From Leptogorgia sarmentosa (taxonomy: Eukaryota): 64,000 bases of DNA. This document shows positions 3,269-60,921 of the stretch, piece by piece. Numbering within the stretch: the stretch's first letter is position 1; each line of letters opens with the position of its first letter. The position numbers were made by a program, and so were the translations under genes. A model generated the notes under the pieces. The model was not told the DNA's origin. It made no database searches and saw only the letters and a program-made list of their open reading frames with translations. The stretch covers positions 22,444,001-22,508,000 of the forward strand of contig OZ210885.1 of NCBI GenBank assembly GCA_964658305.1, in the 5' to 3' direction.

Positions 3269-3432
3269 AGGGAACGAGCGCGAATGCAGGTCCCCACTAC
3301 CTGAAATTATACGCTCGAGTTACCCACATTAGGGGTAATCGCAGGAGTCAACCCAGTCGAAGTGCAATGAAAGGGCCTTATCCTGAGAGGACCTCCTAGT
3401 TGATCAAGGTGCCTCTCGCGTCAGGTAAGTAT
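3269..3432 (-). ncRNA. RNU1: U1 snRNA gene, full length (164 nt)
   Basis: Reverse complement starts ATACTTACCTG. It has SLI GATCA, SLII loop ATTGCACTTC, Sm-site ATAATTTCAGG and terminal SLIV with TTCG loop. Confidence 0.96.
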
Positions 3433-32729: not shown

Positions 32730-32746
32730 ATACTTACCTGACGCGA
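32730..32746 (+). pseudogene. RNU1: U1 snRNA 5' 17 nt only
   Basis: ATACTTACCTGACGCGA, preceded by a spacer homologous to 3433-3860. Confidence 0.9.
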
Positions 32747-32849
32747 CACTGCTTGGCTGTCCTTTCATGGCATTCTACCCACGGCCGATCGATCATTTTT
32801 TCACTTGGCTTTTCTCGCTTAAAAGATGGCGTGGAATTGCGAAGAAGGC

Positions 32850-32874
32850 ATCGCTTCTCGGCCTTTTGGCTAAG
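32850..32874 (+). pseudogene. RNU2: U2 snRNA nt 1-25 with upstream flank
   Basis: ATCGCTTCTCGGCCTTTTGGCTAAG. Confidence 0.95.
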
Positions 32875-35800
32875 TTGTTCTGACAGTTGGTGGTCTTGCT
32901 GCCGAAGTCTGATTGCTGCTGAAGAAGATATCCGTGCTGTGGCACTGTTCAGTTTCGTGGTCCTGTCCTGTTGGTCGTTCCTGTGCCGTTCAGTCCGTTC
33001 CTGTGCTGTTTTCCTGTGCTGTTCCTTTACTGTGCTGTCCAGTCCGTTCCTGTGTTGTCTTCTTGTGGTGTCCGTCCCTGTGCTGTCCAGTCCGTTCCTT
33101 TGGTTCATGTCGGTCGGTTCAGGCCTCCTTGGCTTCGGCCTTGGTGGTACACCGCGTGGCTGTGCCTTTCTGCGAGGCCCTCTAGGGGGAATCGTTAGGA
33201 CAGGCTCCTTCTTCCTTTCCTTTTTAGAGGGATTCGTTCCTTTTTTCTGCTTCCCTTCCTGTTCGAGACTGGGTTCTCGGTTTAGTTAGTTTTCGAGACT
33301 CGGTTCTCGGTTTAATTAGCTATCGGGACTTGGTTCTCGGCTAAGTTAGATTTTGAGACTTGGTTCTCGAGTTACGTACTGTGTGTTTTCGAGAATTGGT
33401 TCTCGGTTTAGTTCGTTATCGCGACTTGGTTCCCGGCTAAGTTAATTTAGTTCTCGAGATTTGGTTCTCGGTTAAGCTCAGTGTGTTTTCGAGACTTGGT
33501 TCTCGGTTTAGTTAATTTTCGGGACTCGGTTCTCGGATAATTTAGTTCTAGAGAGTTGGTTCTCGACGTAAGTTTAGTGTGTTATCGAGACTTGGTTCTC
33601 GTAGTTAAAGCTTTATAGACCTTTCTGTTCTCGACGTTAAATTTATCCTTTTCTTTTTCCTTTTTTCTCTTCCCTTTTTGCGAGACCTTGGTTCTCGTAT
33701 GCAATTTAGAAATTAAAATATAATAATATCGTATAGTAATATTGTGTATTGAGGATGATTCCTCATGTCAATCGCACCTGCAATGAGGTCATAGATGACT
33801 TTCGTGGTCAAGTAGATGACTACACCTTCGTTTTCGAGGCTATCGTGATGATGGCCCCTGGCCGATTCCGTGTCACCTTTAAGGGTGCATGGAAGATAGA
33901 AGCTGCCGAGCACTCGGGTTTGCTAGTGTGAGGCCTCCCTGTAGAATTCATGCCAATCTCTAAATACACCTGGGTAAACGTTACCCGCGTATCATACGGC
34001 GTACCTGAAGTCGAGATCACTAAGGTGTTAAGTGGCTTCGGTGAAATAAAAAAGATCTCGTCAGAGGTCTACTCCAACATATACACCGGTGTGAGACATG
34101 TGTTGATGGAAATCCGTCAACCTATACCCTTCTGTATGCGCATCGCTGGCCATTGGTGCTTTGTCCATCATAAAGGCCAGAAACGCCTTTGCTTTCGCTG
34201 TGGCCAAGAAGGCGTAAAGATTGCGTAATCCCCGAAATCGGAAAACCTTTTTCTCCTGGCTTAATTGCGCCAAGCCAGACATCAGAGCACTTCAAGAGAC
34301 ACACTGTCGATCGCTTGAAGAGTTTCAATCCTGGCTAGCTACTGAATCACGTGAAAATAATAATTTACGACATTACTTAGTAGAATCTTCTCCGGGCTCT
34401 ATTCGTAGTGCCGGGGTCGCACTACTTTATAAACCTAGCTTTAAAATTGAGAAGGTTGCCAAAGATTCCGACGGCCGACTTATAGTAGCCTGCTTTAAGC
34501 ATATCAACCTGGAATCTGTGTTTCAAGTTGTAAATATCTACGGTCCGAACCAAAAAAATGCCAGTATAGATTTTTTTGCCTCCTTACATCAGAGGATCGA
34601 TCCAGCCCTTCCCACGATATTGTGTGGGGATTTCAATGTCGCCGTTGATCCGCAGATCGACCGTTTGGGATGCAATCCAGATTCTCCCTGGGCTTATAGC
34701 TGACCTGCACCTCTTTCTTCTTTAACTAATAGGTGTGATCTACTCGACACCTGGCGTTTACACCATCCAAACGATCGTGCTTATACATGGCGTCGAGCCA
34801 ATGGATCCCAAGCATCCAGATTGGATATGTTTTGGATTTCTTCTTCCCTGCATGAACATGTCTCTGAGGTGTCTATCTCCCCTTTTTTCCGGTCTGACCA
34901 CTCCTACGTTTTTCTCCGAGTGGCCTTTCCGGCTTTGCCTGAACGAGGTCCTGGGGTGTGGAAATTGAATACCTCGCTATTGCGCGATGAAACTCTGTGC
35001 GCAGAGGTCCGTTCTTTTTGGGTTTCGTGGCGGTCCGAAAAAGAGACCTTTCCGTCCTTGGCCGTTTGGTGGGATGCGGGCAAGGCTCGTTTGAAGGACA
35101 AGATTCGACATTTTTCTCGTGGCAAGGCTTAGTCACGGTGGTCAAACATCCACAATTTAGAAATTACCCTAGAACATCTTCACCGGCAGGAAGCCAATGG
35201 TGATGACGTGGCACACCTCGTAAAAGAGACTAAGGACAAACTCGAACTGAAACATCTACATGCGGCGGAGGGCGCGCGCATTCGCAGCAACGAGCAGTGG
35301 GCCGAGGAAGGCGAAACTTCTTCTGCCTTTTTCTTCCGTCAGGAGAAAGGGAGGGCATCACGCTGTTTATTTACTGGCATTCGCGATGCACATGGCACTA
35401 TAGTACGATCTGTTTCCGCCATTTTACGAGTTTGGTGCCTTTTTTACGTTCAACTTTTTTCTGCGTCTCTTTTATCTCCCTCGGATGAGTCTTTTTTCAT
35501 CAATAGCTTAGATAAATCTCTTTCTTCTCAAGAAGCCCAGCTTTGTGAAGGAGAGGTCACATTATCTGAATGCCAACGAGCTTTGAATTCCTTCAAGCAT
35601 AACAAATCTCCGGGTCTCAATGGTTTGCCATACGAGTTCTACCAGTCTTTTTGGGACACATTAGGACCTGATTTAGTAGCTGTATATAACGATTGCATGG
35701 CACGGGGTGCCCTTTCTTTTTCACAGCGAACTGGGTTAATCTCGCTTCTCTTTAAGAAAAATGACCGCTTGGACGTCAAGAATTGGCGTCCCATTTTCCT

Positions 35801-37203
35801 CTTATGCACTGATTATAAAATTTTATCTAAGGTGTTTACCAACCGCCTCAAAGTAGTTCTATCTTCTGTTATCTCAGAATCACAAGCTTGTGGTGTTCCT
35901 GGCCGGTATTCCGGGCTGAATGTCAGGACATTGCAAGATGTAGTTAATTTTTGTAATCGCAACAATACTGGAGGGGCTATTATTTCCTTAGATCAAGAGA
36001 AGGCTTTTGGTCGGGTTGACTGGGGATTTATGCTACGCACTTTGGAAAAGATGCATTTTGGTCCGTCCTTTTGTGCATGGGTCAAACTCCTGTACACCAA
36101 CATTTTTTCTCGCGTCTTAGTTAATGGTTTTGTGAGCGATGCCTTTATCATTACTCGTGGCGTTCGTCAAGGGTGTCCTCTTTCTCCCTTGCTATATATA
36201 ATTGTGGCGGAGACCATCTCAAGCGCAATAAAAAAGGACCTCAACATTGACGGTTTCCAAATGTTCAATGTGTTCCCTCTAAGAAGTCGAGAGCGACTCG
36301 AGAATCGTCTGACTATTTAGCAGGTCAAGGTCTCGTTCGTTAACGGAATGAATTAACAGAATCGTCGTTTTTTCCGCCCTGCTGGGTGTGCTACGGCACA
36401 ACATTTGGCTCAGCCGCAACGTCAGCGCTTCGATCACGTTGCTCCTGATGCTACCACCACCTTGAAGAAAGCCAAGTCCACCTTCCGCTTTCTGGTGCGA
36501 ATGTACAAGAGACATCGCCCACAAGACCGGTTTGTCCAGGAGTGGCTGGCTGACGGCGTTATTGGCTCTCTCACCGAGCAAGACTGGATCCGTTTTACCA
36601 GGGATTTTATTACCTGATTCCTTCTTCTCTCTTTCCTCCCTCTTCTCCTTTTTTCGTTCTTTGTGTTCTATGTAGCGGTCTAGGGGCATGACGGTCGCCT
36701 TAACTGGTTGTACTGTCGTCGCCTTCTGGACTCGTTTGTTTTTGTGTCGTTGTCTTGGACTGGACAGCACATTTGTTTTTATGTTCAATGTTGGTTTGTT
36801 TTGTCCTCCCATGAAGATCTAGCGGTCGCCTTCATTGGTTGTACTGCCTGTATCGGATTGGGTTGTTTGTTTGTTCCAATTTTTGCCCTGTGGTTCGCTT
36901 GGACTTGTTCCAAGCGGGTTGCACAGGTGTTGATCTAGGGGTTGCTGCTCATGTTGTAATCGTTTAGTTTAACATCATCATCTGACCATTTCACCATCAT
37001 TAGCTTAGGGATCCCTGGGCATGAAGGTGGATAGCACCGGATCGTTCAGGCCACTCACGGTTGCATCATGGCACGGGGGAGGGGCTCACAACCCCTGTCG
37101 ATCCGCGTCACCTGTAGTGACCCCCCTGGGTGCGGCGATTTGTTTGGGTCCAGGCTCCATTGCACCGTCGGAGTCGACAAGCCCGTCGTCGTTCAACTCA
37201 AAA
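32875..37203 (+). mobile_element. Tx1-clade LINE, family A copy 1, inserted in U2 with TSD TAAG; internally deleted
   Basis: Repeat-rich 5' UTR, ORF1 from 33756, APE (LQETH, GDFN, SDH), RT (GVRQGCPLSP), ~590-bp 3' UTR. Both U2 junctions are present. Confidence 0.93.
33262..33700 (+). repeat. Array of ~13 palindromic CGAGA-CTTGGT-TCTCG units in the Tx1 5' UTR
   Basis: Period mostly 30-36 bp with T-rich linkers; also at 48427-48780 and 59917-60122. Confidence 0.9.
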
Positions 37204-37228
37204 TAAGATCAAGTGTAGTATCTGTTCT
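37204..37228 (+). pseudogene. RNU2: U2 snRNA nt 22-46 between two LINEs
   Basis: TAAGATCAAGTGTAGTATCTGTTCT. Confidence 0.95.
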
Positions 37229-38969
37229 GAACAGAAGCTATGTGACGAGCTCCGCAGTTTTATGCTTTTTCCACTGCGAGTATTGGTCGGTTGACGGTCA
37301 AAAACATACCAAAAGATAGCTAAGGTCCTCCTGCATCGATTGGTGTTTATTTTATCGACAACGGTCGAGCATTTCGCACGCTACGAGGAGAATACGGGCA
37401 GACGTCGAGCAGGTTTGTATACGAGTATCGGATTACACGTCGACAGCCAGCTTTACGCCGTTGTTTCAGCGCGATTGGCGGTTCAATCTCGGCATAATAC
37501 ACACCGTTGGAATCGGAAGCGAATTCCCTGTCGAACGGTGGTATTTTCGTTGCGAACGGGGCAGCCTACGCAAAGTTACGACCGAATTTCAATTTGTAGC
37601 ACAGTATACGACGACGGCTCGCTATTTTCACAAGCCTTCAGGGTGCTGGAATCGACAAAGCAGTGATCGAAATCGAAGGGATCGAATGCTACAGCAAGAC
37701 ACTGTGGTATGTTGTTTTTAACACCCGCGGTGACAGACAGAAACACCGAGAGCACAAAATCACGCTATTCGGCAAAGACTTTGAACTGAAATCCAACGAC
37801 TCCCGACCAAGCCGACCCACGTACATCTTCGTACGCGCCTACGGATACCCCCTGGACGCAGACCGTGACACTCTTGAAAAAACGCTAGGTCTATATGGTG
37901 ACCTACTCGAGGTGGTAGACGACGTTCACAGCTGACTGGGCATAAAAACTGGCGTATGGTACGCCAGGTTCAGCAAGCTGCACGAGCACATTCCCTCGTT
38001 CATCCACGCCAGCAAGTACCAGGTGCGAACAAGCTACCGAGACCAGCCCCAAACGTGTCGCAACTGTCACCGAGAGGGCCACAACGCCAAGAACTGCACG
38101 GCCGGGAAAGTCTGCAAACAATGTGGAAAACCCGGGCACACAAAAGGAGACTGCCCAGAACGGCAATGCTTTTATTGTAAAGGCAAAGGCCACGAACTGT
38201 CGCACTGCGACAAGTACGCGCAGGAATTCCCCGGGCTAGACGCCACACTCGATGACACGACCAATGGCCAGGACACCACTACCCCCGGCCACTCGAGCCA
38301 ACAACGGGAGGGCGACCCCGCCACGACGACCACCGACACCAACACAAAGACACCCCCCAGTCCCAGGCGGAAATGGAGGTGACAACCACCCACGAAATCC
38401 AGGCCGACAACATGCCCAACCATTCAAGCCAAACCCAAGAACCACCCCTTGAGGAAAGCCCACCCACTGCGACGATGGTCAGCAATCCCCTGCGGCGGCC
38501 AACCAGACAGCGGACGTAGACCACCCCGAAGACCACCCAGACCCGAAGGACACGAACAGAGACACAGAACACACATCCTTCCCCCCACCCACTACTGGCC
38601 CCTGGGGCGGGGATGCGTGCGAATGGGATCCAAACGATTCGATGGACTGGAACGTCCCTCCGCTAGATACCGCCACGGACTCTTCGTGGTCCTCCGCCCT
38701 CGAATCGGGTGAAGAACCACCCCAAAAGGCCTCCAAGACCACCAACGAACCCGCCGGTGAGACTCGCAAAAAAAAACGCAAGGGCAAGAAAAAGGACACC
38801 CAGCAGAAACCAACGGAACAACAACAACAACAAAGACCACCCGAAACGCAAACGAAATGACCATCCGTTAAAGTGGCGGCAGGGAAAAGCCGGCACCCCT
38901 TTATGCAGCCAAATTCAAGTGCGTAAGCCTGAACGTCAACAGCATCGCGGATAAACGGAAACGTGAACG
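37229..38969 (+). mobile_element. Tx1-clade LINE, family B (Keno-like): 5' UTR, ORF1 with three CCHC knuckles, start of ORF2
   Basis: CRNC..GH..C, CKQC..GH..C, CFYC..GH..C; APE start CVSLNVNSI near 38915. Begins right after U2 nt 46. Confidence 0.8.
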
Positions 38970-41900
38970 TATGGGGCGCCAAAACGGACAATATTGCCTT
39001 TCAAAAATATATATTTTCTAAACTACAAATGTTTGCTCTAATACAAAAATATTTGTCCTAAACTTCAAAAATATATGTGCCAAACTTAAAATATATGTGC
39101 CAAACTCAAAATATATCAGCTAAACTCAAGAAGTTTTTTGTAGTCATAAAATACATGCTCATGGAAAAATATATATTCTAATTATCGTGCTTTGCGGCCT
39201 TATTTATTATACACGTGACAACCCAGCAACAGACGACCGCCATGTTCTATGCATGCAAGCATGTATAACTCAAATGATCTCCAGCTCCAACTAAACAACG
39301 CACTGCAAAGGATACATCAACTTGAAAGTGTCAGTATTTCTCCGAACACTCAGCCATCGACAAGTTCCACTGCAAATAGTGGTTTGACGTTAACAGAAGA
39401 ACTGCGAAGAAGTTTTCCTAGCTTAACAAATTTGCAACCAGGACCAGACCGTACTTTAACTCCTACCTCGAGCCCAGCTGTAAGCTTTTCTACAAATTCA
39501 GCAACAAGCTTAACACAAATGCCATTGAATCGCGCTTCAACCTCAGGTTTTAGTGTCAACAAGAAAAAACGAAAGCGTGGGTTGACACCAAAAGTAAACA
39601 TAAAGCCGAAAGCAGTCCACAAAGATTTGGTGTTGGTCCCTGACCCACTACAAACCTCTGTTCCGACTCATTCAGCTCGGGTAATGTTGGAAACTGACGG
39701 TTACGTTCTTCATAGCTTTCCTTTTGTAAGAGATTGAGATCACATTCATTTAAAAAATGAAATTGTAAAAGTCTTTCCACAAATCCAGTATTGTGGTTAT
39801 GAGTACATGAAGGTATAGTGGATACGACATGATTTGCTATATAATACAAATTTAAACTTAAATGTACGAGTACAGCATGAAATTGAAACTTTAGATTTTT
39901 GGAATCGTCCTAGAAATTTGATAATTCAATGAGAGGTTTACAGAAGATATTTACACAAACATCTATCATTTTTATTTGTGCTACATGTTAGTACAGGGCT
40001 TGTATGGAAAACTTGTCGCACCAAATTTGGCCCCTGGAGTTAGTATGAACTGCAATATGTTGCTGAAGCTGTCTGGCCAAGGAGCTGTGTACATTCGCTC
40101 AAATGTGAAACTTGACAGTGATCCTTCTGATAATGATGATGAGGATTTGTTTATGCCATCCACAGTTGCAGTAAAACAAGAACCAGAAGTCTTGGAAATT
40201 CCATCTGATATTGAAGGTAGATAAAATACCAATGAAATGACATATGAAACAATTGTGCAATAAATAACGCCCAGTAAAGCAATTGCATAATTTTATTTAA
40301 TTTTTTGCCCATATGAAGAATCCTGTTGCAATTCTGATTGGATGAATTGAAGTGTGAATTTAGACCTTTAGGCAGTCAGGGTTTAATGACATAGATGTGT
40401 CAAGTACATCATTGATAGCATCACTGAGGACTATAAACCATTCATCCTGAAATGTGAATGTATGATGAATATATGTCAATGTGGATGTTCACTAGCTAGC
40501 TGTTTGCATGACATTGACATATTGTAGCATTGCAGCAAGTATCATGGGACAGTACTCGTCTGTTGACATTGTATTTACTAGCACTAGTGGAAATGTATTA
40601 ACATTTTAGACATGATCATTGAAGAAGCTGTTGGTATTGCTGAGACTGTGCCAGAATCCACCAGTGTACCTCCAGTAAATGGTAATTGCTGAGAAAATTA
40701 ATCCCAATGATGAAAACCCCAGAATATTGAGTATCGATCCCTTACTCTAGCACAGATCCCAGTAACCCCAGGCAGGTAAATCTGCATATTAACTTATCTG
40801 AAAAAAAATATTCAAATCTTAGATCCTGTTATGGTTGAACAAGCTAATGATATTGCAGAGTCATTTTCTGACTCCATTCAGTTGGTTGATGAAGAGCACC
40901 CTTTCATTGGTAAGTTATTTGCACAATTACAGTGTTTTATCCCTACTTTGCTTGGAATTTCCCACTTTGAATAAACTTGTCTGCAGTTGACTGATTGAAA
41001 TAACAAAACAGCTATTAAATTTTAACATTTTATAAAAACTGGAAATTACAAGAGGTACAGGTACTGAGCACATGCAAAGATTGAAAATATGTAAATATGT
41101 TTTAATCCTTTTTAACTTTAGTTACACATTAATAAATTTGTTCTATTGTATTAGGAATGATACTGTATTTCAGATTTTACAGTTTGTACTGTGGTCAGTT
41201 ATGAAATACCGACTAATGCATTAGGTGTATAATGTGCCCAGTGCTTTCAGATACTCTTCTCAATTTGGCTGATGCCACGTAATGTTACTGGTAGATGAGA
41301 AGGAGAGTGCTCACTCTGTCATTTATTAATCACCCATTGGTGAAGCTAAGTTGGTAAAAATGTACATGTAAATAGAATATTCACGAGTTTTTATTTAATT
41401 TAGAACATCACTTGACAACAGAAACTGGAGTAATAGATCTCAATCTCAACATGGATGACTATCCAGTCAAAGCCGTAACAGTACACAGAACAACCCTTAA
41501 GAATGATATGATTGAATTATTTCAAGACCCAGACACACTTAGTAAAGTTTTAATGTTTAGTGTCATAGGTTTTGATGGTTCAACTGAAAAGGGTGAAGGC
41601 GTAGGGTTAGCTAGGGATGTTCTTACAAGCTTTTGGCAGGTTTTCTTTGATTCTTTGGCTGTTGGTGTGCAGGAAAAAGTTCCATCAATAAGGCATGACC
41701 ATAAAAAAATGCAGTGGGTTGCAATTGTTAGGATTCTGATTTATGGTTACGTCAGAGAAAAATATTTCCCAATTTCATTTTCCTTAGTATTTGTTGCTAC
41801 TTGCTTGTTTGAAGAGGAAAGTCTAACCAATCATGACCTGCTACAATCATTTCGAATGTACATATCAGATGATGAGCGTGAGACCTTTGACAAGTGTTTA

Positions 41901-42460: not shown

Positions 42461-45400
42461 CCCTTCTCGTATACATATCCGGGGCAACCCTATCAATGTT
42501 TTCTACCGAGGACAAACCCGTTCGTGTTTCACCTGTGGCAAATTAGATCACGAATCCAAAATGTGTCCAAGAAAGGGGCGCGCCTCACTACCCCCAGCTA
42601 ATCCACCATTAGTGGCACGAGACGGAGAAGCAACGGTCCGCAAGAGTGCTCCAATCCGACTTTCTTCCGGTGAGCCAGTACGTAACAAGAGTGCATCCAA
42701 CTTGGCTGAAGACCATCCGGACACCCACTACCTACGCTGATATTGTGGTAGCCTCAACGTCTTCCCATAGTGCCCTCTCCCCCAGTCCCACTTGTGCGAT
42801 TTCCCCCCAAACATCGGCAACAGCATCGATCAATTCGGATCAATCGGCAGCGAACCTACCGCCTCCTCCACCACCCCCACCCCTTCCACCATCTCCACCC
42901 CCTCCCCCACCACCTCCACCACCCCCACCCCTCCAGTTCTAGACATGGAAAATCAACCTAAGACGCCAAGTGCAGAGGTTGAGCCAACCAAAAACGTCAT
43001 GGAAGTCGACACTGAGACTCAAAAGGCTAGTAAACGCCAGCACCCACCTGAAGATCATTAGTACTGTCGAATACCTTTTCCGTGCTTTCTGATGAGGTAA
43101 ATCCCGGTCCAATAAGTGGTAATAGCAGCAACCCGGAACGCGAAAAAGAACCGCCTAACCGTGAGGAAGAAACCGAAGCTGACAAAGAGAGTGACCAGAG
43201 CAAGGATTCACTGGGACACAACAGCACATCTGAGAAGGTGTCGTTCACAGAGTCCATGGTGATTCAGTCAACCAAAGAATCGACGAGGGTTTATTCAGAT
43301 ACGACGACATTCGGGGATGCGAAACGGGACGAGAATCCCCGATCCGCGACAACAGCGCAAGAGTCGGCACCCAATCCACCAGAAAGGGGTTGGCGTAAAG
43401 TCCAAAGGCGTAAAGTCCAAAGTCGCAAGACATGATGTCGAGTCGAGAATGTTCACCACTTTTGTACGACGGTGAAGACGAAGATGAGAATGAAACCGAG
43501 GAAACTACTACTGCGCGCTCGTCGCTCCTTCCTCCAAACCTTCCGAAAAAAGTCCATCGCGTGGATAGTTGCCAAGAACTCCGAGATAACCTGACAGCCT
43601 TTCTTTCTTCAAAAAAGACGACGCCAGCTCCAGTTTATGGCACCTCGAAAACGTCTAAAACTCCGTTCTCCCAATCATAATGGACGCAATGCCTCAACTT
43701 AAGATAATTACCTTAAATTGTCAAGGTCTCAGAACAGATTCGAATCGCGAAACGCTTTTTGCATGGTTAAACTGCTTTCGACCAGTGAACAAGAATTCGA
43801 GCGATGGGTGAAAGATGTCAGCCCAACTATGTCCGTACACTACAACGCAATATCAAGTCCTGGATCTGCACGGAGTTGCGGGGTAGTGATTCTGTTCAAA
43901 TCTGAATACATTTTACAATCAGTTTTCCGGGATGAACAGGGACGGTGTGTTTCGGCACATTTCTCAATATTCTCGACGGATTTTCAAATTAACAATATTT
44001 ATGGCCAAAATAATAAATGTGATGGGTCATATTTTTTCGAGTCCTTATATCCAGTGGTGCAACCAGATCTTCCTCTTATTGTATGTGGCGATTTTAACAC
44101 AGTGATGGATCCCACAAAAGACAGACGAGGCTGTAATAGTTCGTCGTATTGGTCCTATAATTGTCCCGCCTCCTTAAGTACACTAATATCCACTCTGAAC
44201 TTGGTAGATGCGTGGCGTGCTCGTCACCCGCTGGCTAGTGAATTTACTTGGACACGCCCTAATGGTTCCCAAGCGTCACGTTTAGATATGTTCCTGGTTT
44301 CCAAAGAATTGGTTCCCAACATCCGCACAATAGATATCCTCCCATTCTTCCGCTCGGACCACCATTATGTTTATCTGGAAGTCTCACTACCATCTACACT
44401 CTCCCTTGGACCGCGCGATATTGGAAACTTAATACATCATGTCTTCAGAATGACCAACTAGCTCAGACGGTTCAAAATCTTTGGATCCACTGGCAAACTC
44501 AAAAAAATCGGTACTCCACGTTAGCGGCCTGGTGGGATGCTGGCAAAGTCATGCTAAAGAAACATATTGGTTCCTTTAGTCGGAAGCAAGCAAAGTCACG
44601 GAAACAGAAGATCAGGTCATTACAGAATACGTTATATCATCTCAATCGCCGTTTGATACGTGGAGATGATGTAGATAGATATATCAATGAAACAAAGACA
44701 GAATTGGAGATGGAATTGATGCAAGACGTGCGAGGAGCCCAAGTAAGATCCAGAAGTCGCTGGGCAGAGGAAGGCGAATGCTCTACAGCGTACTTTTTTC
44801 AACAAGAGAAGTTGTATAGAAAACATTCCGTCATCGAGACCATTACTAAACCTGATGGGTCCGCGGCAACCTCTTCACATTCCATATTAGCCGTATTTCG
44901 CTCCTACTATGAAAACTTATTCTCCTCAGCTCAGTTGGACGCTGGAGACCAAGAGTACTTCCTCAATAATATCGATCGCAAACTCTCTACTGATGAATCG
45001 AAATCATGTGGAGGACATGTGACGAACGCCGAATGTTTAGCTGCGTTATCTGCAATGGCCCACAATAAATCACCTGGTCTACAGTGCGACCCACAGTATT
45101 AGTTTGGTACGATATTAGTGCATTGTAGATTACATGTTTGGAGGATTAAACATAATATGGGTGAATTTTGTTTGGTTCATGGTAGAAACAATATTGCATT
45201 GATTACATTTCATATTAGTCACATGACAACAAAATCCAGGTGTTCCTCCATAAAAGAGGTGGTCCACGCTATTAGTTTCATAAATTGCCGAGCAATATGG
45301 GAAGTAGAAAAGACCTAACCTTAGCCAAAAAAAGCCATTATTATGAAAGAAATAGCAATAACCAACATTACAAAAGCAATTTTTGAAAGATTTGATGGTC

Positions 45401-48365
45401 ATGTTGTGACAGTGATAAGATTTTTGCAAAATCCATTCTTCAAGTGGAAATTTCATTCTGATCGTAACTATTAAAGCCAATTTTAAAGCAGGATACGAGT
45501 TGAGCAACCAGTAAGTTGCATAAAATGCCTCCAGCAGCAAGTGGAAAATTTGCCCAGAAAGCTGGTTCGCTCGATCTTCCAAAAACCACTCGCAATCGTG
45601 GACCTGCGAAGACAGGTTCCATGGAGTAAATGAAGAAATGTTGAACTTTCACTGCTAGACACGATCATTTGACGATGGAATGGGCCGGAAAATTCATGAG
45701 GACGAACACAATGTTTGTTCTTTTCACTGACGAATCAAGGCCGACACTGGATGGTTCAGATGGCTGGAGTAAAGGATGCGATGAGGAATGCCCTAAGGGG
45801 ATGAGACGCCAACATGGTGTTGGAGGATTATGAACAGGAATGGAATCATCGCAGATGCACTCATTGGTCCCTTCCGTGTGCCTGAAGGTCAGAAGTTGTC
45901 TTCTGCTATGTATTGCCCTATCCTGAAGAAATCCCTTGAGTCACGGTTGGATAAACTTCCTTTAGCAACATTGAAGAAGATTACCTTAACGCATGTCACA
46001 TGCAGCAAAGGCAACAACGGAATCCCTTCAGTCGTTTGGTTTTGTGAACAAAATCGTAATGGTTTGGCAACTAAACTCGCCAAATTTGAACCCAATTGAG
46101 AACTTGTGGTGGATAATAAAGCGTCATGTTTATATCATCTAGATGGAACCCATCTTGGCAGGTGCACGATTGCGAGTGGTTTTTGCAACATCGAGGAGAC
46201 CAGCTTTCTGTGCAAATTTTCCACTTGCTGCCGGAGGCATTTTACGCAACTTACTCGTTGCTCAACTCGTGTCCTGCTTTAAAATTGGCTTTAATAGTTA
46301 CGATCAGAATGAAATTTCCACTTGAAGAATGGATTTTCCAAAAATCTTGCCATTGTCAGAACATGACCATCAAATCTTTCAAAAATTGCTTTTGTAATGT
46401 TGGTTATTGCTATTTCTTTCATAATAATGGCTTTTTTTGGCTAAGGTTAGGTCTTTTCTACTTCCCATATTGCTCGGCAATTTATGAAACTAATAGCGTG
46501 GACCACCTCTTTTATGGAGGAACACCTGGATTTTGTTGTCACGTGACTAATATGAAATGTAATCATTGCAATATTGTTTCTACCATGAACCAAACAAAAT
46601 TCACCGGTATTATGTTCAATCCTCCAAACATGTAATCTACAATGCACTAATATCATACCAAACTAATACCGTGGATCGCACTGTAGACGGCTTTCCTGCA
46701 GAATTTTATTTGAAATTCTGGCCTGTTTTAGGAGAAGACTACGTAGCGATGGTGAACGAGTGCTATGATTTGGGTTCTCTTTCTGTCACACAGCGTCATG
46801 GCCTTATCACCCTCCTTTTCAAGCGTGGTGATCGTACTCTTACGAAAAATTGGCGCCCAATCACTCTGCTATGCATTGATTATAAAATTATCTCCAAAGT
46901 TATTGCCAACCGTCTCTTACGAGTCATTGCATCAGTCACAACACAATCTCAAACCTGCGGAATCCCAGGTCGCATGTCTGCAGAAAACGTTCGCCTATTA
47001 AAAGACCTTGTCCATTACGCCAACGAAAAGAATATTGGAGGAGCGATTCTGTCCTTGGATCAAGAGAAAGCTTTCGATCGCGTTGAATGGTCCTTCATGG
47101 TGAAAGTCCTCCAAGGAATGGGATTCGGACAGTCCTTCATTCAATGGGTACAATTATTCTACACAAATATTTCATCATCGGTTTTTGTAAACGGGTTTAT
47201 CTCGCAGGAATTTACCGTGTCCCGTGGTGTCAGACAAGGTTGTCCATTGTCTCCTCTATTGTATGTGCTGGTCATCGAAGCTTTGGCTATCACTATTCAG
47301 AAAGATCCTCACATTGAGGGAATCGTCCTACCAGATAGTAGTGTTCAAAAACTGGTTCAGTACGCAGACGACACAACAGTCCTGGTATGCTCTGATGCGG
47401 CCATCCTCAAATTGTTTACTACTTTCGGATGGTACGAACACGCTTCTGGGGCTAAATTGAACCTTAGTAAATGCCATGCTTTGCTTCTCGGCTCATGGCA
47501 ACACCGTCAATTCTTTCCGGTCGACTTAGAATGGAGAACAGATCACATCACTGTGCTGGGGGGTCGTATTTCTAATACCAACGAAGAAGATTGGAGCACA
47601 CCATTAGCCAAATATGATACAGTGTTACGTTCCTGGAGTCAGCGTCAACTCTCTTATTGGGGGCAAACTCTCATCGCGAACATTTTAGGTTTGAGTCTGT
47701 TTTGGTACATAGCCACGTTTGACACAATTCCTGAACGTGTGGTTCGTACGATCAATCAGAAAACGTATGTTCTAATATGGAACAAAAAACGTGAAGCACT
47801 CGCTCGGCTCTCCATGCTTAAACCACATAATGAAGGCGGCCAAGGGGTAGTGGACGTGAATACTAAAGTAAAATCACTACATTGTTTATGGGTGAAACGA
47901 TATATCCTTGGCGTTGGCACGCGTTTTTTGAAGATGCATTACGGTCGGCATTTCCTAGTTACGCATCAATCGAGATAATCCTTTCCACACATTCCCTTCC
48001 AACTCAAAGTTTGAAACGACTCCCGCCTTTTTACAAATCCGTGCTGTCATCATGGGCTCGACTGACTCCCCGTCTTGAGAGTGGAACATGGTTTATTCCC
48101 CTACGACCGGGAGTGGAAATAAACTTGGCACAATTAACAGCACGAATGGCCTACCGGAAACTTCTCCCACCACACCAACACCGGTGCATTGAAAAATTTC
48201 ATTCTCTGGATCTTCAAGTTGACTGGCCTCCGGTTTGGAACAGCCTGCCTCTGTGGAATTACATCCGCTCCGTTCAAGACACTTCGTGGTTATCGTTCCA
48301 CGGGGTGTTAGCGACCGCAGATCGGCTCATCAATTTTGGTATGAACGTTAATGCATCCTGTCGCT
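42461..48365 (+). mobile_element. Tx1-clade LINE, family C, truncated at both ends (ORF1 tail; ORF2 from 43680)
   Basis: YPGQP..C, Pro-rich tract, APE (GDFN, SDH), RT (LDQEKAFDRV, QYADD). Confidence 0.88.
45082..46683 (+). mobile_element. Tc1-like element with ~550-bp inverted arms and transposase remnant
   Basis: TA|CAGTGCGA..TCGCACTG|TA splits the host KSPGL|DG. Remnants FTDESR..LDG.DGW and SPNLNPIENLW. Confidence 0.9.
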
Positions 48366-51300
48366 AGGCAGGCTCCTTTTCCTTTCTTTTTTGGAGGGAT
48401 TCGTTCCTCCTTTCTTTTTTCCTTTCCGAGTCTGGGTTCTCGAGTTAGGTCAATTTAGTTTTTCGAGACTTGGTTCTCGATTTACGTTAAGCGTGTTTTC
48501 GAGACTTCGTTCTCGACTTAAGTTAAGTGTGTTTTTGAGACTTGGTTCTCGAGTTAGTCAAGTTGTTTTTTGAGACTTCGGTTCTCAAATTAGGTTAACT
48601 TGTTTTTCGAGACTTTAGTTCTCGAATCAGGTTCTTTTCTTTCTTTCCTTTTTTTCGAGACTTTGGCTTTCAGGTCAGGTTAATTTGTTTTTCGAGACTC
48701 TGGTTCTCGAAGTTAAATTTGTCCTTTTCCTTTTTCCTTTTTTTTCCTCTTTCTTTTTTCGAGACTTTGGTTCTCGAATGCAATTTAGTACATAAATAAT
48801 AAGTAAAGTAATATAATATAGTGTGGGGAGGATGATTCCTCACGTTAATCGCACTTGTGATGTCATCCTTTCGGATAACATCGAGGCGCAGAGAATAAAT
48901 GTTAAAGAAGTCATTGATGAGTTCAGGGGAAAAATCGATGACTACAAGTCTACTTTTGAAGCCATCGTATTGATGGCCCCTGGTCGGTTTCGCGTCACTT
49001 TCAAGACGGCAAGGAAAATGGAAGCTGCTGAACATACGGGTCTCACCGTGCGAGGCTTCCCGGTTGAATTCCGACCAATTCCTAAGTATACTTGGGTTAC
49101 GTCACCCGTTTATCATACGGAGTTCCTGACGAAGAAATTACCAAAGTCCTAAGTGGCTTTGGTGAGATTCGCAAGATCTCGTCAGAGGTATACTCGAATA
49201 TCTACACTGGGGTTCGGCACGTTTTGATGGAGATCAAACAGCCTATCCCTTTTCGTCTTCGAATCGCTGGTCATTGGTGCTTCGTGCACCACAAGGGCCA
49301 AAAGCGACTTTGTTTTGGTTGTGGTAAGGAGGGCCACAACCGCTCAGACTGTCCAGATCGTGTCCCACCTTCGGCTCAGGACTTGACGTCTTCTGGGTCT
49401 TCCAATCTTTCGGGGCATGTGCCTGAGCAGGTTCACCAAACGGTGGACCAATCGAACCACTATCGGGTTCGCTTCCTCCCTTACCATCAGGAGTGGAAAG
49501 CGAACGCTCCTCTGAGACAGTTAAAAATCTGTCTCGAAAAAGACCCGTTCCACGGCCTCGTAATCGCAACAAGCAAAGGCGGCCTGTAACAACTGGCGAA
49601 CAAGATCACTCGCACTCACCGCCCCGTAAAGACTCTCGTCGGGAGAGTGAGGATCCCCCTTCTGGGAGTTCATCACAGGCCGGGCAGACATCGATGGATG
49701 TCGACCCTGCGTTGAAACTGACCCCTCTGCCTGAAGAGGTGCCCCTACCACCGGAGGTTCCCAAAGAGGTGTCTCTGCCTGAGGAAATAGACAACCTTTT
49801 AATCCAGGGTTCGTCCCTCCCTGACCCACACGTTGACGGCTCGGCTTCACACATGGCCAAGGAACTATCAGATTCTCTTTTGACCTTTGACGCACTGGAT
49901 GGTGCTAGCTCTCTTAGTGGGAGTAGCCCAAAAAATAATGTACCGGAAGCCTCTCAAGTTTCCGAAGAAACTCTTGTAATGCGCCACTTTTTTGAGGAAG
50001 GTGGCCCCCTCTCCGATGATGGATCGGAGGGCTGCTTTTGATCCCTTTTTTTTCCCACCTAGTGATTTAATTTATAATAATAGTAAATAATTTATATAGT
50101 ATATTTTTCACACACCCATCATGCCTACACAAGAACTAACTATAATTACCCTCAATGTTCAAGGGTTACGTCTCCCTCGTAATCAGAAAACTCTTTTTTC
50201 TTGGTTAAACTGTGCTAAGCCTGATATCATTGCCCCGCAAGAAACGCACTCTCGTTCCATAGAGGAATTTTCCTCCTGGGTGGCGTCTGAAACACAGGAA
50301 AATAATAATTTCCAACGATACCTAGTGGAATCTTCTCCGGGCACTATACAGAGTGCTGGTGTAGCACTACTATACAAACCCTGTTATAAGGTAGAGCATG
50401 TTGATAGAGACACAGATGGTCGTGCCCTCATAGCGCAATTGAAACATGTCGATCCTGAATCTCTGATTCAGGTTGCCAACATATACGGTCCAAATAAAAA
50501 GCAAGCTGGTGAAGAATTTTTTTCCTCTCTTCATCCGCAACTTGACCCTTCTCTCCCCACCATTTTGTGCGGTGATTTTAACGTTGTTGTCGACCCCCAT
50601 GTTGACCGCCTTGGTTGCAACCCAGACTCTCCTTGGGCATATAATTGGCCTGCATCTCTTTCATCACTGACCGATCGGTGCGATCTGGTTGACACTTGGC
50701 GATTAACGCACCCAGATAAGCGGAGTTACACGTGGCATCAGGCTAATGGCTCCCAGGCTTCACGAATAGATATGTTCTGGATTTCCTCTTCGTTACATGA
50801 GCAGGTCTCTGAGGTATCCATTCTTCCTTTTTTCAGCTCGGACCTTTTTCACCTGGTGTATGGAAGCTCAACACATCTTTGCTGCGCGATGAGACGCTGT
50901 GCGCGGAGGTCCGCAACTTCTGGGTCTCGTGGCAGTCCGAGAAGGACACTTTTCCGTTTCTTTTCCGTTGGCAAAGCCCGCCTGAAAGAAATCATCCGTC
51001 ACTTTTCTCGAGGCAAGGCCCGATCAAGGTGGTCGAACATGCACGAGTTAGAATCTACCCTTGAACAGCTCCATCAACGAGTGGCTAACGGTGAAGATGT
51101 GGCTCATTTGATAAAGGAGGCACGGGACAAACTAGAACTTAAACATCACTATGCAGCAGAGGGTGCGCACATCCGGGGCAGGGAACAGTGGGCAGAAGAA
51201 GGTGAAACTTCGTCTGCCTTTTTCTTTCGCCAAGAGAAGGTGCGCGCAACGCGGCGCCTTTTCACTGGCATCAGAAATGCTCAGGGAGCTATAGTAAGAT

Positions 51301-54205
51301 CCCTATCTGCCATCTTGCGTGTTTGGTGCATTTTCTATGTCCAACTTTTTTCTGCATCCATCCTATCTTCTTCGGATCAGTCCTTTTTTATAAACAGTTT
51401 GGAGCATTCTTTGTCGGCAGAGGAAGCTCAGCTTTGTGAAGGAGAGGTCATGTTACAGGAATGCCAGCGTGCGCTAAACTCTTTTAAACATAATAAATCC
51501 CCGGGTCTGGATGGGCTACCCTATGAATTCTATCAGTCCTTTTGGGACACTCTGGGTTCCGACCTAGTGGCAGTCTACAATGATTGCCTGGCACGAGGTG
51601 CCCTTTCCTTTTCCCAGCGCACTGGCTTAATCTCTCCCTTGTATAAGAAAAATGATAGGCTGGATGTTAAGAACTGGCGACCAATTTCTCTTTTGTGCAC
51701 TGACTATAAAATCCTGTCCAAGGTGCTTACAAATCGCCTTAAAACTATCTTATCCTCGGTTATCTCCGAATCCCAAGCATGCGGCGTCCCTGGACGTTTT
51801 TTCTGGCCTGAATGTTAGGGTATTACAGGACATAGTTAATCACTGTAACCATAGCAACACTGGGGGTGCCATCATCTCGCTGGATCAAGAAAAAGCTTTC
51901 GATAGGGTTGGGGGGGTTCATGCTGCGGGTTTTAGAGAAAATGAATTTTGGTCCGTCCTTTCGTGGGTGGGTCAAGCTTCTGTATACGAACATCTTTTCC
52001 CATGTTTTAGTGAATGGTTTTACCAGTGGCGCCTTTAGTGTCACTCGGGGAGTTCGTCAGGGGTGCCCTCTCTCTCCTTTGCTTTACATCATTGTAGCTG
52101 AAACAATCTCGTGTGACATTAAAAAGGACTTAAATGTCGACGGCTTTCAGTTGCCGCATGGGGACTCTGTAAAAATTTTTCAATATGCGGACGATACATC
52201 CATTATCGGAGCAGGCCCTCCGGTCACTTTTCTCACTTTTCGCACGATACGAGCTGGCTTCCGGTGCGAAGCTAAATATTAACAAAAGCCATGGTCTCCT
52301 TTTCGGGTCCTGGAAGGATCGGACCGATTTACCGATCCAATTGAATTGGTCTAGCGAGGCTATAACCGTGATCGGTTGCCGGATAGCAAATGTGGAGGGA
52401 GCGGATTGGCACACCATTGTGGAAAAGTTGGAGCGGCAGTTGGGTGTCTGGAAACAGCGCCAACTGTCGTTTCGGGAAAGAGCTCTAATCGTCAATACTC
52501 TTGGCCTGTCCAAGGTACCAGGTACCAGGCAACATCCTTTGATATGCCTAAAGTAATTGCAGCTAAGATTAACAAGATTGTTTTCCCTTTTGTTTGGGGG
52601 AAGAAGAGAGAGTGGATGGCTCGCACCTCCGTCGTTCAGCCCACCACTGCAGGGGGCTTGAATGTTGTCGACATCCACAATAAACTTTTGTCTCTTCGGG
52701 CCGTATGGCTCGGCCGGTTTTTCCTCCACCATAGACACCCGTGGTCATCCCTTTTTTCGCAACTTGTTGCTGGCGTGTTCGGCCAGTCGGTGCCAGAAGT
52801 ACTTGCTCGTGATCCTCTGCCAGCCTACCTAATAAAAAAACTCCCTCCTTGTTATCGAGGTGTATTAACGCCATGGGTCCTCCTCAAAGGCAGGAGTGAG
52901 CAAGGGTGAATGGGTAATTCCTTGCCCTTCGGGGCATTTGCTTCCTATTTCTGAGCTGACCGCTTGCGCAGGGTATTTTTTCCCTGCTTCGCAGCTCATC
53001 AACCGTCAAACACCGGTCAGTTGCAAAGTTCCGCGAGTGGGGCATTGATGTCCCATGGCTGACTGTATGGACATCCTTACACCTATGGCGTTTTGTGCGA
53101 TCTGTACAAGACACTGCCTGGCTGTCGTTCCACGAAATACTCCCGACAGCAGACAGGTTAGTGCGATTTGGCATGCGTGTCGATCCTCGGTGCTTCTGTG
53201 GCCAGCAGGAGACATTGTTGCACCTATTCACCGACTGCCCTTTTGCAATAGCAATTAAAGCATGGTTTCATGCACAATATGCTAAGTTTCGGCCAAACGC
53301 TCCCCAATTATCAGCATTCCACCTCCTTTTCACTTTTGCCAACGATCATCAGGTTCCTGTAGCTTTTTCTGCCCTGCTGGGTGTGCTACGACACCACATC
53401 TGGTTAAGCCGCAACGCTCAGCGGTTCGATCATGTGGCCCCAGATGTTCAAGCAACCATGAAGAAAGCCAAGACCACCTTTCGCTTTCTGGTGCGCATGC
53501 ACAAACGACATTGCCCTCGGAACAGCTTTGTTCATCAGTGGCTGGTTGACGGCCTGATAGGGACGCTCACTGAGGAAGATTGGATCAGATTCACAAGGGA
53601 CTTCATCACCTAAGTTCCCCTTCTTCTCTCTCCCTTCTCTCTTGCTTTTTTTCCGTCTTCTTTGTGTTTAATGTAGTGGTCCAGGGGCTCGACGGTCGCC
53701 TTTACTGGTTGTACTGTCGTCGCCTTCTGGACTCGTTTGTTTTTGTATAGTTGTCTTTGGACTGGACAGCACATTTGTTTTCATGTTTAATGTTGGTTTG
53801 TATTGTCCTCCCATGAAGATCTGGCGGTCGCCTTTATTGGTTGTACTGCCTGTATCGGATTGGGTTGTTTGTTTGTTTCAATTTTTGCCGTGTGGTTCAC
53901 TTGGACTTGTTCCAAGCGGGTTGCACAGGTGTTGATCTAGGGGTTGCTGCTCATGTTGTAATCGTCTAGCTTAACATCATCATCTGACCATTTCACCATC
54001 ATTAGCTTAGGGATCCCTGGGCGTGAAGGTGGATTGCACCGGATCGTTCAGGCCACTCACGGTTGCATCATGGCACGAGGGAGGGGCTCACGACCCCTGT
54101 CGATCCGCGTCACCTGTAGTGACCCCCCTGGGTGCGGCGACTTGTTTGGGTCCAGGCTCCATTGCACCGTCGGAGTCGACAAGCCCGTCGTCGTTCAACT
54201 CAAAA
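48366..54205 (+). mobile_element. Tx1-clade LINE, family A copy 2, near full length, 3' end at U2 nt 22
   Basis: ORF1 about 48831-50041 (CFGC..GH...C); ORF2 50121-53613 with frameshifts; ends CAACTCAAAA|TAAGATC. Confidence 0.93.
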
Positions 54206-54374
54206 TAAGATCAAGTGTAGTATCTGTTCTTATCAGCTTAATATCTGATATGTTAGGCAATGTCCTAACTCATATATTAAACTGATTTTTGGACCTTGGC
54301 CATGGGATTGAAGCTTGCTTCGCCCTGGCCACGGGTTGTCTCGGTATTGCACTACCTCCAAGTACGGCCCACTT
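54206..54374 (+). pseudogene. RNU2: U2 snRNA nt 22 to end
   Basis: TAAGATCAAGTGTAGTATCTG...GTATTGCACTACCTCC. Confidence 0.95.
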
Positions 54375-54580
54375 CCCCCAATTTCATTATTCCTCTCAGG
54401 ACGTCTGGCAGCGGTATTACACCGGACTCTTTACTGCGGCACCCTGCGATACATCTGCTCAGGATAAGATGCTGTCAAAGCTGTCTCGCCGCCTTAGTAA
54501 GGAGGAACGTGCGTGTTGTGAGGGTCTTCTCTCTTTAGAGGAGTGCTTTACTGCCTTATCTGGTATGGCTAGAGGAAAAG

Positions 54581-58435: not shown

Positions 58436-59916
58436 AAGACTCTGGGTTCCGATGGCTTTCCCATGGAGTTTTACCTCAAGTTTTGGTCATGCCTTGGCGC
58501 TGATCTGGTTCATGTCCTCAACGTTGCTTACGAGGCCAGCCAGCTTTCCACCTCTCAACGTCGAGGTCTGATCATAGTACTCTACAAAAAGAATGACCGC
58601 TTGGAGACAAAGAACTGGCGGCCGATTAGTCTGCTCAATGCAGACTATAAAATAGCTACTCGCGCTATTTCGGGTCATCTCCTAGCCGTCATCGGGTCTG
58701 TTGTAGGGCCAGATCAAACATGCGGTGTTCCAGGCCGTACCATCTCAGAACCTCTTTCTGATCTGTGATCTAATTGAGTATGCGGAGCATGAGGACATTC
58801 CCCTCGCTCTGCTCTCTTTGGATCAAGAAAAAGCATTTGATAGGGTCGATTGGGGTTTTCTTTTACGGACTCTGGACACCATGAATTTTGGTTCGGATTT
58901 CTGCCGGTGGGTAAAATTGTTTTACTCCGACGTAGAATCGGCTGTTGTTATTAATGGCTAGACCTCCTCCTTTTTTCACCCTTCACGGGGTGTGCGGCAG
59001 GGTTGTCCACTTTCTCCACTATTGTACGTTCTGTCGATTGAGGTGTTAGAGAATTCACAAGGCAGTTTGGAAGTTCTTCTGGTCTGGCAAGCGGGATCTT
59101 GTTGCCCGCAAAATAGTCTGCCTTCCCAAATCCAAGGGTGGATTTGGAGTTATTGACTTCCAACTCAAGGCAGATGCTTTTGCACTTCAATGGGTAAAAC
59201 ATTTGTTTGCCGAAGATCGCGGCAAATGGAAGGACTTTTTTGCCCATTTTGTTTCTGCCTCACTTGGTTGCGAGCCTCGTGAGGCCCTTTTATCTTCCTT
59301 TTTCCAACGTCGTTTGAGAGCCTTGCCCGAGTTCTATCGTATCATCTTCCGGGTGTGGCAATCTCTCGACGGTGGTCTTACCGGTAATGACTTGTGCATT
59401 GCTGCCTCGTCTGCCTCGTCTGCCTCGTCTGCCTCGTCTGCCTCTCCACTACTAGTGGAAAACATATCTAGTCGAAACGTGTACCACATTAGTCAAAATA
59501 ATTTAAACAGCCAGCCACATTGTATTGCCAAATTTACGCCGCAGTATGGACCTCTACACTGGCCCCAAACTTGGAGTCAGCTCCATCTATGTCCATTTGA
59601 CCGGCTGGTAATCGACCTGAATTGGCAAATAGCGCACAGCATTCTATACACGGGCTCTCGCTTGGGAACCCGCTTTAACATGCCCAACATCGATACGCGC
59701 TGTTTCTGTCGAGCAGATGAAAAACGTTAGAACATCTGTTGTTCGAATGTGAGCTGGCCCGCCTTTTGGTGGCATGGGTACACTACAATTTATGGCAGAT
59801 ATGTCCTACTGCCGCACCATTTACCGTCACAGAACTCTTGTTCGGTTTCTCGTCCGAATGACGGCGCATCGTGCCCCCAATCATCGTGTGGATGCTCCAT
59901 GTTATGAAACATACCA

Positions 59917-60921
59917 TCTCGGTTAAGTTAGATTTCGAGACTTGGTTCTCAGTTAATTTAGTTCTCGAGACTTGGTTCTCGAGTTACGTACTGTGTGTTT
60001 TCGAGACTTGGTTCTCGTAGTTAAAGCTCTACCTCTTTCGAGACCTTTTTGTTCTCGACGTTAAATTTTGCCTTTTCTTTTTTCCTTTTTCTCTTCCCTT
60101 TTTTCGAGACTTTGGTTCTCGAATGCAATTAGTAAATAAAATATAATAATATAGTATAAAAGTTTAGTAATATCGTGTGGTGAGGATGATTCCTCACGTC
60201 AATCGCACCTGCGATGTGGTCCTCTCGGATCATATAGAGGCTCATAGAGTAAACGTTAAGGAGGTCATAGATGAATTCCGTGGTCAAGTAGATGACTACA
60301 CCTCCATTTTCGAGGCTATCGTGATGATGGCCCCTGGCCGGTTCCGTATAACCTTTAAGGGTGCACGGAAGATGGAAGCTGCCGAGCACTCGGGTTTGCT
60401 AGTGCAGGTTTCCCTGTAGAATTCAGGCCAATCTCCAAATACACCTGGGTAAACGTTACCCGCTTATCATACGGCGTACCTGAAGTAGAGATCACAAAGG
60501 TGTTAAGTGGCTTCGGTGAAATCAAAAAGATCTCGTCGGAGGTCTATTCCCACATATACACTGGTGTGAGACATGTGTTGATGGAAAGCCGTCAACCTAT
60601 ACCCTTCCGCATGTGCATCGCTGGCCATTGGTGCTTTGTCCACCATAAAGGCCAGAAACGCCTTTGCTTTGGCTGTGGCCAAGAAGGCCACAACCGCTCA
60701 GACTGCCCTAGTCGCGTGCGAACAGAAATCCCAACCGAAACAACGTCCGGGACGTCTAACGTCCAGTCTGGTGCTCTTGTCGGAGATGCCAGCGGGCAAG
60801 TCCACCAGACAGCCGTGGACAACGTAACGAAGCCTTCTGTGTCTACCGACCCATCTCAGTCCGGTACTTTGCCTCCGATTCCATCGGAGTTGGAAACCGC
60901 AAGCCCATCCGAGTCAGGCGT
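59917..60921 (+). mobile_element. Tx1 family A copy 3 (5' UTR repeats and ORF1 fragment)
   Basis: MIPHVNRTCDV..., CFGCGQEGHNRSDC. Confidence 0.9.

Follow-up and report, generated by a model that had tools for sequence, protein, structure and literature searches.

A LINE inserted at nucleotide (nt) 22 of U2 snRNA genes carries, shortly before its junction with U2, a hairpin whose loop begins with AUUGCAC, and this loop is predicted to be a dock for the host protein SNF that would stabilise the end of the element RNA or bring the RNA to snRNA gene clusters. Docking of a host protein is the best single explanation of the results presented here, and we give it an even chance of being correct. The U2 site at nt 22 is apparently new, and the SNF-type hairpin that this LINE family carries at its 3′ end is conserved. 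No description of either the site or such a retroelement hairpin, and nothing combining U1A or SNRPA with retrotransposons, was found in the full-text literature, a body outside which lie supplements, Repbase Reports, and most subscription journals. The terms 'U1A' and 'stem-loop' have no occurrence in the main texts of PMC4494074 and PMC4640811, the supplements of which may list an nt-22 family, and the available part of PMC8869645 contains neither an nt-22 site nor such a hairpin.

The window, that is, the whole stretch of 64,000 nt of Leptogorgia sarmentosa DNA analysed, contains an animal U1/U2 snRNA gene cluster dense in mobile elements, with one U1 and three U2 matches to Rfam. In a word scan of the window, U2 sequence restarted at nt 22 at 37204, 54206, and 4033 (minus strand) and at nt 38 at 32135. 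The two plus-strand insertions at nt 22 (family A), their flanks, and the reference U1 gene are as follows.

3269–3432, minus strand: host U1 snRNA gene, whose SLII loop (3368–3359) served as the reference
32850–32874, plus strand: U2 snRNA nt 1–25, 5′ flank of copy 1
32875–37203, plus strand: copy 1, with a 5′ UTR containing tandem repeats, ORF1, ORF2, and a 3′ UTR
37204–37228, plus strand: U2 nt 22–46, 3′ flank of copy 1, beyond which a further zinc-knuckle LINE starts with its 5′ end
48361–54205, plus strand: copy 2, 5′-truncated compared with copy 1 and frameshifted
54206–54377, plus strand: U2 nt 22–192, 3′ flank of copy 2, with the Sm site and U2's own SLIV AUUGCAC loop at 54346

U2 nt 22 is the 3′ junction in both copies. 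Copy 1 sits in the sense orientation between U2 nt 25 and U2 nt 22, and U2 22–25, the last 4 nt of its 5′ flank, are repeated at 37204–37207 as a 4-bp target duplication. Keno, a U2 snRNA gene-specific element of the APE-type Tx1 clade (PMC4494074; PMC4640811), and Utopia share a 3′ flank published as nt 39 (PMC4640811), and the Utopia-type copy in the window joins nt 38, which corresponds to this published site. The nt-22 site is separate from that of Keno and Utopia, lying 16 nt upstream of it, and is used by at least two different tails. Identification of family A as Keno was rejected, since the junction lies at nt 22 in both copies and not at nt 38/39.

Within this one cluster, elements use two or three positions in U2: nt 22, nt 38, and possibly 38–46. 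A second zinc-knuckle LINE (37229–38990, plus strand), of which ORF2 and the 3′ end are absent, starts after U2 nt 46; at 37221–37235, the 7 nt with which it opens read as the reverse complement of a 7-nt stretch that stops one base short of the junction. This LINE is possibly of the Keno type, with U2 38–46 duplicated. Elsewhere (32730–32849, plus strand), a U1 gene with its upstream region is cut short beyond nt 17, and 103 nt separate this break, probably a deletion within a U2–U1 repeat unit, from U2 nt 1–25. Long inverted-repeat elements occupy 4253–5046, 11001–11396, and 45077–46688.

In copy 1, ORF1 begins at about 33755, and ORF2 (34218–36617), comprising APE endonuclease, reverse transcriptase (RT), and C-terminus, is broken by stop codons and has lost about 400 codons internally. 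APE and RT are encoded in both copies, and copy 2 also matches a C-terminal zinc family and the ORF1 zinc knuckle (Pfam PF03372, PF00078, PF13966, and PF13696, with some matches on fragments below the curated cut-off). The endonuclease at the ORF2 N-terminus is thus of the APE type and not the RLE type of Utopia. Among solved structures, the full-length relative P0002 was nearest to human L1 ORF2p (E 9e-93), compared with 4e-20 for R2. Named protein relatives came only from the octocoral Paramuricea clavata. Family A fits an APE-type L1/Tx1-like LINE, with the label Tx1 resting on architecture and target specificity. The first-pass annotation, made from the sequence alone, had called the element a Tx1 retrotransposon; the APE, RT, and zinc architecture agrees with that assignment, but none of the homologs returned was a named Tx1 family beside which the element could be placed.

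The 5′ UTR of family A holds degenerate tandem repeats of ~30–35 nt (33262–33620, 48423–48744, and 59917–60023, plus strand), and a third ORF1 fragment lies at 59917–60920. A profile of the ORF2 C-terminus found three metagenome loci (L001, L002, and L003) and no locus among viral and genome contigs. L001, a 58%-identical relative, includes only about the first 256 nt of the 3′ UTR and so stops short of the position of the hairpin, and L002 and L003 stop inside ORF2. The junction pattern was absent from the viral, metagenome, and prokaryote genome collections, and neither the U2 pattern nor the hairpin pattern occurred in viral contigs. No tRNA head was found. A U1 pattern matched two viral contigs by chance; these were not U1, and comparisons with them were discarded.

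The hairpin occupies the tip of a longer predicted stem at the end of the 3′ UTR.

36618–37203, plus strand: 3′ UTR of copy 1, with several conserved predicted hairpins, ending in four A
37132–37192, plus strand: predicted terminal stem
37153–37175, plus strand: apical 6-bp hairpin with a C–G closing pair and an 11-nt loop
37159–37165, plus strand: AUUGCAC heptamer, recognised by SNF/U1A and placed 45 nt ahead of the U2 junction
54155–54177, plus strand: the same hairpin in copy 2

The apical stem (37153–37158/37170–37175) consists of five Watson–Crick pairs and one G–U pair, with C37158–G37170 closing the loop 37159–37169. Below it, the terminal stem comprises a lower helix (about 37146–49/37181–84), a variable 5′ linker (37140–45), and an outer helix (37132–39/37185–92). 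Predicted pair probabilities of the apical stem were 0.96–0.99 in all four contexts of copy 1 and 0.86–0.97 in both contexts of copy 2, with the heptamer predicted to be unpaired at 0.71–1.0. Coordinates and fold predictions agree with the earlier description of a 6-bp C–G-closed stem with an AUUGCAC-led loop, separated by 28 nt (37176–37203) from U2 nt 22 at 37204. The region was not stabler than shuffled sequences (z −0.13 to −0.72), and z-scores are uninformative here. In the same 3′ UTR, a structured module is present twice (36686–36722 and 36813–36855, plus strand) and also in L001 at 4070–4115, and changes in a long hairpin downstream of it (36885–36930) keep pairs.

The window contains 17 ATTGCAC words, five of which stand in a C–G-closed loop of 10 or 11 nt: those of host U1 SLII, of copies 1 and 2, of a second, unrelated nt-22 tail called family B (4080), and of a chance-like site at 4572 (minus strand). 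In 300 shuffles of the window, such a loop on at least six pairs occurred at 0.017 per window (1.3e-5 per 100 nt), and one of 20000 UTR shuffles contained such a loop. Counting the apparent chance site at 4572, with its 4-bp stem, gives an empirical rate of ~8e-4 per 100 nt, and the chance of the motif overall is thus about 1e-5 to 1e-3 per 100 nt.

AUUGCAC is the recognition sequence of SNF/U1A (PMC10466895; PMC5992148) and is reported to lie at the 5′ side of the loop in SLII of U1 and in SLIV of U2 alike (PMC4114683; PMC5992148), as it does in the element hairpin. The loops of host U1 SLII (10 nt, C–G closed) and host U2 SLIV (11 nt, U·U closed) are as the first-pass annotation gave them. 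The element loop resembles SLII in its C–G closing pair, in C7, and apparently in variable 3′ loop bases, and resembles SLIV in its length of 11 nt, but differs from SLIV proper in the absence of U at loop position 8 (C37166, with T only in minor contigs), so that it is an SLII/SLIV hybrid. Three features expected of an SNF site are present: AUUGCA(C) standing first in the loop, C–G closure, and one of the two loop lengths of such sites, 10 nt (as in SLII) and 11 nt (as in SLIV). Unlike SLII and SLIV, it is located in a mobile element and is unrecognised by the Rfam U1 model. The 3′ loop bases of U1 SLII are reportedly not read by the protein, and for a reconstructed SNF ancestor, U8C was tolerated within an 11-nt loop and a C–G closing pair improved binding (PMC4114683). 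A U1A-like ancestor reportedly lost at least tenfold in binding with an 11-nt C8 loop. A C–G pair also tightened binding by Drosophila SNF threefold (PMC5992148). The ancestral data predict that a single SNF-type protein would tolerate an 11-nt, C–G-closed loop with C7 and C8 (PMC4114683), and together with the Drosophila data, they predict binding of the element hairpin by host SNF.

Conservation was evaluated over 37105–37230 in 131 contigs aligned at ≥80% from four runs bearing four other organism labels (53, 8, 59, and 11 contigs). Runs were picked by shared 31-mers, and seven of 24 were compared (X1, X7, X8, X9, X11, X12, and X19), of which X7 and X8 have little or no cover over the hairpin and carry no evidential weight. 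Only changes reaching ≥2% of depth in some run were counted and contigs below 80% identity were left out, which inflates invariance. On average, the heptamer diverged by 0.001 and the two strands of the apical stem by 0.000 and 0.008, compared with 0.086 for the four loop bases on the 3′ side, 0.11 for the 3′ strand of the internal loop, and 0.70 for the 5′ linker (37140–46). Positions changed at ≥10% numbered zero of seven in the heptamer versus nine of 18 at other predicted unpaired positions (Fisher p 0.027, in a biased run set); without the linker, the comparison was zero of seven versus three of 12 (p 0.26). Retention of the heptamer with free 3′ loop bases is the pattern of U1 SLII and would be in the direction predicted for an SNF site. 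In these related sequences, heptamer and stem are nearly unchanged under four other organism labels, in a run set that is biased.

At T37168, X9 has C in 29341/30787 depth units; in X19, G37146A (11638/12802) and C37184T (29425/33461) are both dominant and would retain a lower-stem pair, and one-sided changes at 37135, 37138, 37139, and 37190 keep the outer pairs. The apical stem showed no compensatory change among the changes listed for the four runs. The closing G was replaced by A in minor contigs of three of the four runs (87/30787, 257/1857, and 871/71575), and heptamer position G37162 was altered in one X12 contig. The unpaired CCA at 37150–52 and the stretch 37105–37134 were also without listed change. 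Depth continues into the U2 piece in all four runs, where the aligned stretch amounts to 27 letters past the junction; with only these 27 letters compared, no contig bridges the junction under a 31-letter criterion.

A second, unrelated tail at the same U2 nucleotide and a control at nt 38 were compared with family A.

4034–4212, minus strand: family B tail, joined to U2 nt 22 at 4033; its upstream limit is approximate
4067–4084, minus strand: family B motif, with a 4-bp stem, a C–G closing pair, and a 10-nt AUUGCAC-led loop
28194–32134, plus strand: control, a Utopia-type element joined to U2 nt 38, with RT and an RLE-type motif read from the translation

Family B ends in CAAAA like family A, and its loop starts 47 nt before the same U2 nucleotide, compared with 45 nt in family A. 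The flanks of the two families have no similarity (p 0.86), and a family A model built from the two copies recovers just these two and misses family B (19 matches at E up to 10, the other 17 having E ≥ 2). The chance that the motif recurs no more than 100 nt from one junction is 5e-5 to 8e-4, a figure that applies because the motif was defined before family B was inspected. The family B hairpin is weak, with pair probabilities of 0.00–0.32 and a cost of 4.6 kcal/mol in the 179-nt fold, and in the one look-alike of family B found elsewhere (30 letters, X11), either the third stem pair is broken or 12 nt including most of the loop are missing. The inverted-repeat element at 4253–5046 interrupts the sequence upstream of family B and contains the chance AUUGCAC hairpin at 4572. 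The Utopia-type control, whose ORF end is interrupted by a 209-bp repeat (also at 8489–8702), has no AUUGCAC in its 3′ 712 nt and has AAUAAA. The first-pass annotation had named equal frequency of the loop in untargeted LINEs as evidence against its reading; in the window, the sense-strand heptamer occurs in none of four other LINE 3′ ends, including that of the U2-targeting Utopia. Two Tx1-like ORF2 remnants (42540–48360 and 58436–59918, plus strand; 33–64% identical to P0002) are both truncated at the 3′ side by family A sequence, so that their tails are unusable as controls. SLII-like conservation and the same loop motif in the unrelated family B tail thus favour the earlier reading of the hairpin as an SNF/U1A site, in which binding itself stays a prediction from sequence.

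The same 23 nt are present in copy 2, as previously noted, though this identity is uninformative as evidence of conservation because the 3′ UTRs are 94–99% identical from 36705 on. Between the copies, ORF2 is 60–76% identical, and the last 163 nt have three differences. Over 36369–37203 versus 53364–54205, identity rises from 74–85% to 94–99% near 36705, which suggests that subfamilies have exchanged the 3′ UTR or that the UTR as a whole is under strong selection. The rest of the 3′ UTR is conserved too, which counts against the docking reading. The heptamer may be a neutral passenger in a block-conserved or recently exchanged UTR, with the family B match due to chance. The difference between UTR and ORF2 identity is explicable by recombination, the window does contain one chance site with a 4-bp stem, and the run set is biased. 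However, the terminal 100 nt are the deepest part in X9, in which two other UTR stretches are without cover at 80% (a weak point, from contigs only), and among the matches listed, some X9, X12, and X19 contigs lose alignment just upstream of 37146–37148 and retain the hairpin. Given also the low probability of a second match so close to the junction, we consider a neutral passenger improbable.

Recognition by the element's own protein is a serious rival to SNF docking. In LINEs of the stringent type, such as eel UnaL2, a 3′ stem-loop is read by the element's own ORF2p, and LINE tails often keep a loop for their own reverse transcriptase. The hairpin may accordingly be an ordinary recognition stem-loop for ORF2p (or ORF1p), its likeness to an SNF site a captured U1/U2 relic or a coincidence, and family B a partner sharing the signal. 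The fixed distance from the junction (−45 and −47) and the invariance of the loop would be equally expected under such recognition, and the UTR contains other conserved hairpins, one stretch being common to family A and L001. An N-terminal piece of ORF1 gave weak look-alikes only (0.83–0.87; one cluster 18% RRM_1), which amount to no more than a lead. On the other hand, the heptamer and the closing pair, which are all that families A and B share, are exactly what SNF reads, and an arbitrary loop would match an SNF site with a probability of about 1e-4 or less. Taken together, we regard recognition by ORF2p or ORF1p as somewhat unlikely.

As for a relic, pieces of snRNA captured by Tx1-related elements are documented for SINEU and Tx1-Mar of crocodilians (PMC4494074), and both arms of the hairpin resemble by eye, in short matches, the Rfam U1 consensus around SLII. 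However, the Rfam U1 model recovered the isolated host SLII (E 3.5e-4) and did not match the element hairpin at E up to 10, and the similarity of its flanks to host U1 was not significant (p 0.10). In Rfam scans, neither the UTR and its hairpin nor family B matched a ribozyme, the PIE, or U1. Derivation of the hairpin from a captured U1 SLII fragment is possible but unsupported.

The loop might instead be kept for base pairing, either with U2 nt 31–37, in read-through RNA or on the displaced target strand, or with the upstream stretch 37129–37135. U2 22–192 holds one full complement of the heptamer, nt 31–37, with a duplex energy of −5.2 to −6.9 kcal/mol, and the upstream duplex reaches −10.5 kcal/mol. 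Nevertheless, 26 of 581 UTR 7-mers have such a complement in U2 22–46, making the match a modest coincidence; two of the seven pairs are G–U wobbles, with no listed shift towards a perfect complement though C/T changes are common nearby, and the upstream fold is 7 kcal/mol less stable. We give base pairing only a slight chance.

The first-pass annotation had further suggested that bound U1A controls polyadenylation, and a block of polyadenylation by SNF/U1A, like that by the PIE of U1A mRNA, is in our judgement very unlikely. The PIE binds two U1A molecules, but each family A UTR has a single open-loop site, and its other UUGYAC words are without a C–G-closed loop, three being in or at predicted stems. 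Moreover, AAUAAA and AUUAAA are absent from the about 590 nt of both family A 3′ UTRs. What favours such a block comes from family B, in which AAUAAA lies 12 nt before the junction and ~30 nt after the loop, and from the X11 look-alike, which has AUUAAA at that place. The suggestion of polyadenylation control is thus not borne out for family A.

Returning to docking of SNF, we propose the following scenario. The element RNA may be transcribed from the U2 promoter as a U2(1–25)–element chimera. The sense position of copy 1 behind U2 nt 1–25, together with one X12 contig that, among the matches listed, runs from the element end with the duplication into U2 nt 1–24 and then into other sequence, makes transcription from the U2 start likely. 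This order of the contig is expected if the U2 head travels with an element, and it suggests that the head may do so. In the 103 nt before U2 nt 1, promoter identity was looked for and could not be shown. Bound to the tip of the predicted fold of the last 75 nt, close to the priming point, SNF would shield a 3′ end that has no poly(A) tail, a role also ascribed to U2B″ in U2. The SNF-bound particle would resemble an snRNP and would be drawn to Cajal bodies and to the U1/U2 gene clusters where ORF2p nicks, with the exact nucleotide set by the endonuclease and not by the hairpin. Routing to snRNA loci, which the first-pass annotation had also suggested, has a precedent: association with Cajal bodies was rare for human U2 arrays without stem-loop IV, with U2B″ put forward as a candidate factor, though low expression could explain the result (PMC2196410). 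Read-through RNA that extends to the 3′ end of U2 would have the SLIV of U2 itself, which counts against this scenario; the element site would thus matter most where template RNA is cut back close to the junction or comes from copies outside intact U2 genes.

A bolder version, which we put forward tentatively and with a chance well short of even, is that two unrelated nt-22 tails both mimic an snRNA hairpin, so that an RNA in which a poly(A) signal is missing passes for an snRNP and follows its route, and SNF with U2A′ returns ORF2p to U1/U2 arrays associated with Cajal bodies. If so, a spliceosomal protein of the host, docked on the template, would lead the element to its target. How snRNA gene-specific retrotransposons persist on a low-copy target, including the stabilisation and return of RNA made from an snRNA promoter, has been raised as a puzzle (PMC4640811), and a defined SNF site in the element tail reduces it to a one-hairpin experiment. 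If the dock is real, a spliceosomal protein would join the short list of host factors recruited by the fold of a retroelement RNA. The nt-22 site, whatever the mechanism, could matter for site-specific insertion tools.

Among known U2 elements, Keno is, like family A, a non-LTR element of animal U2 genes with APE and RT, but its 3′ junction is reported at nt 39 (PMC4640811) and that of family A lies at nt 22 with a 4-bp duplication. The RLE-type, U2-specific Utopia (PMC4640811) has the target gene in common with family A and differs in its endonuclease, its site, and a 3′ end with AAUAAA and without AUUGCAC. In SINEU and Tx1-Mar, the captured U1/U2 pieces are described as 5′ heads recognisable as snRNA (PMC4494074), whereas family A has a short 3′ motif within otherwise unrelated sequence. 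Like family A, the PIE has a U1A-type site near an RNA 3′ end, but it places two sites upstream of a poly(A) signal, whereas family A has one hairpin site and no signal. Alu RNA, which is derived from 7SL, is bound by SRP9/14 at its 5′ domain. It offers the analogy of a retroelement RNA that recruits a host protein for its mobilisation through a host RNP fold, as is predicted for the element hairpin; in contrast to Alu, the family A site lies at the 3′ end of an autonomous LINE and would draw on the spliceosomal pathway.
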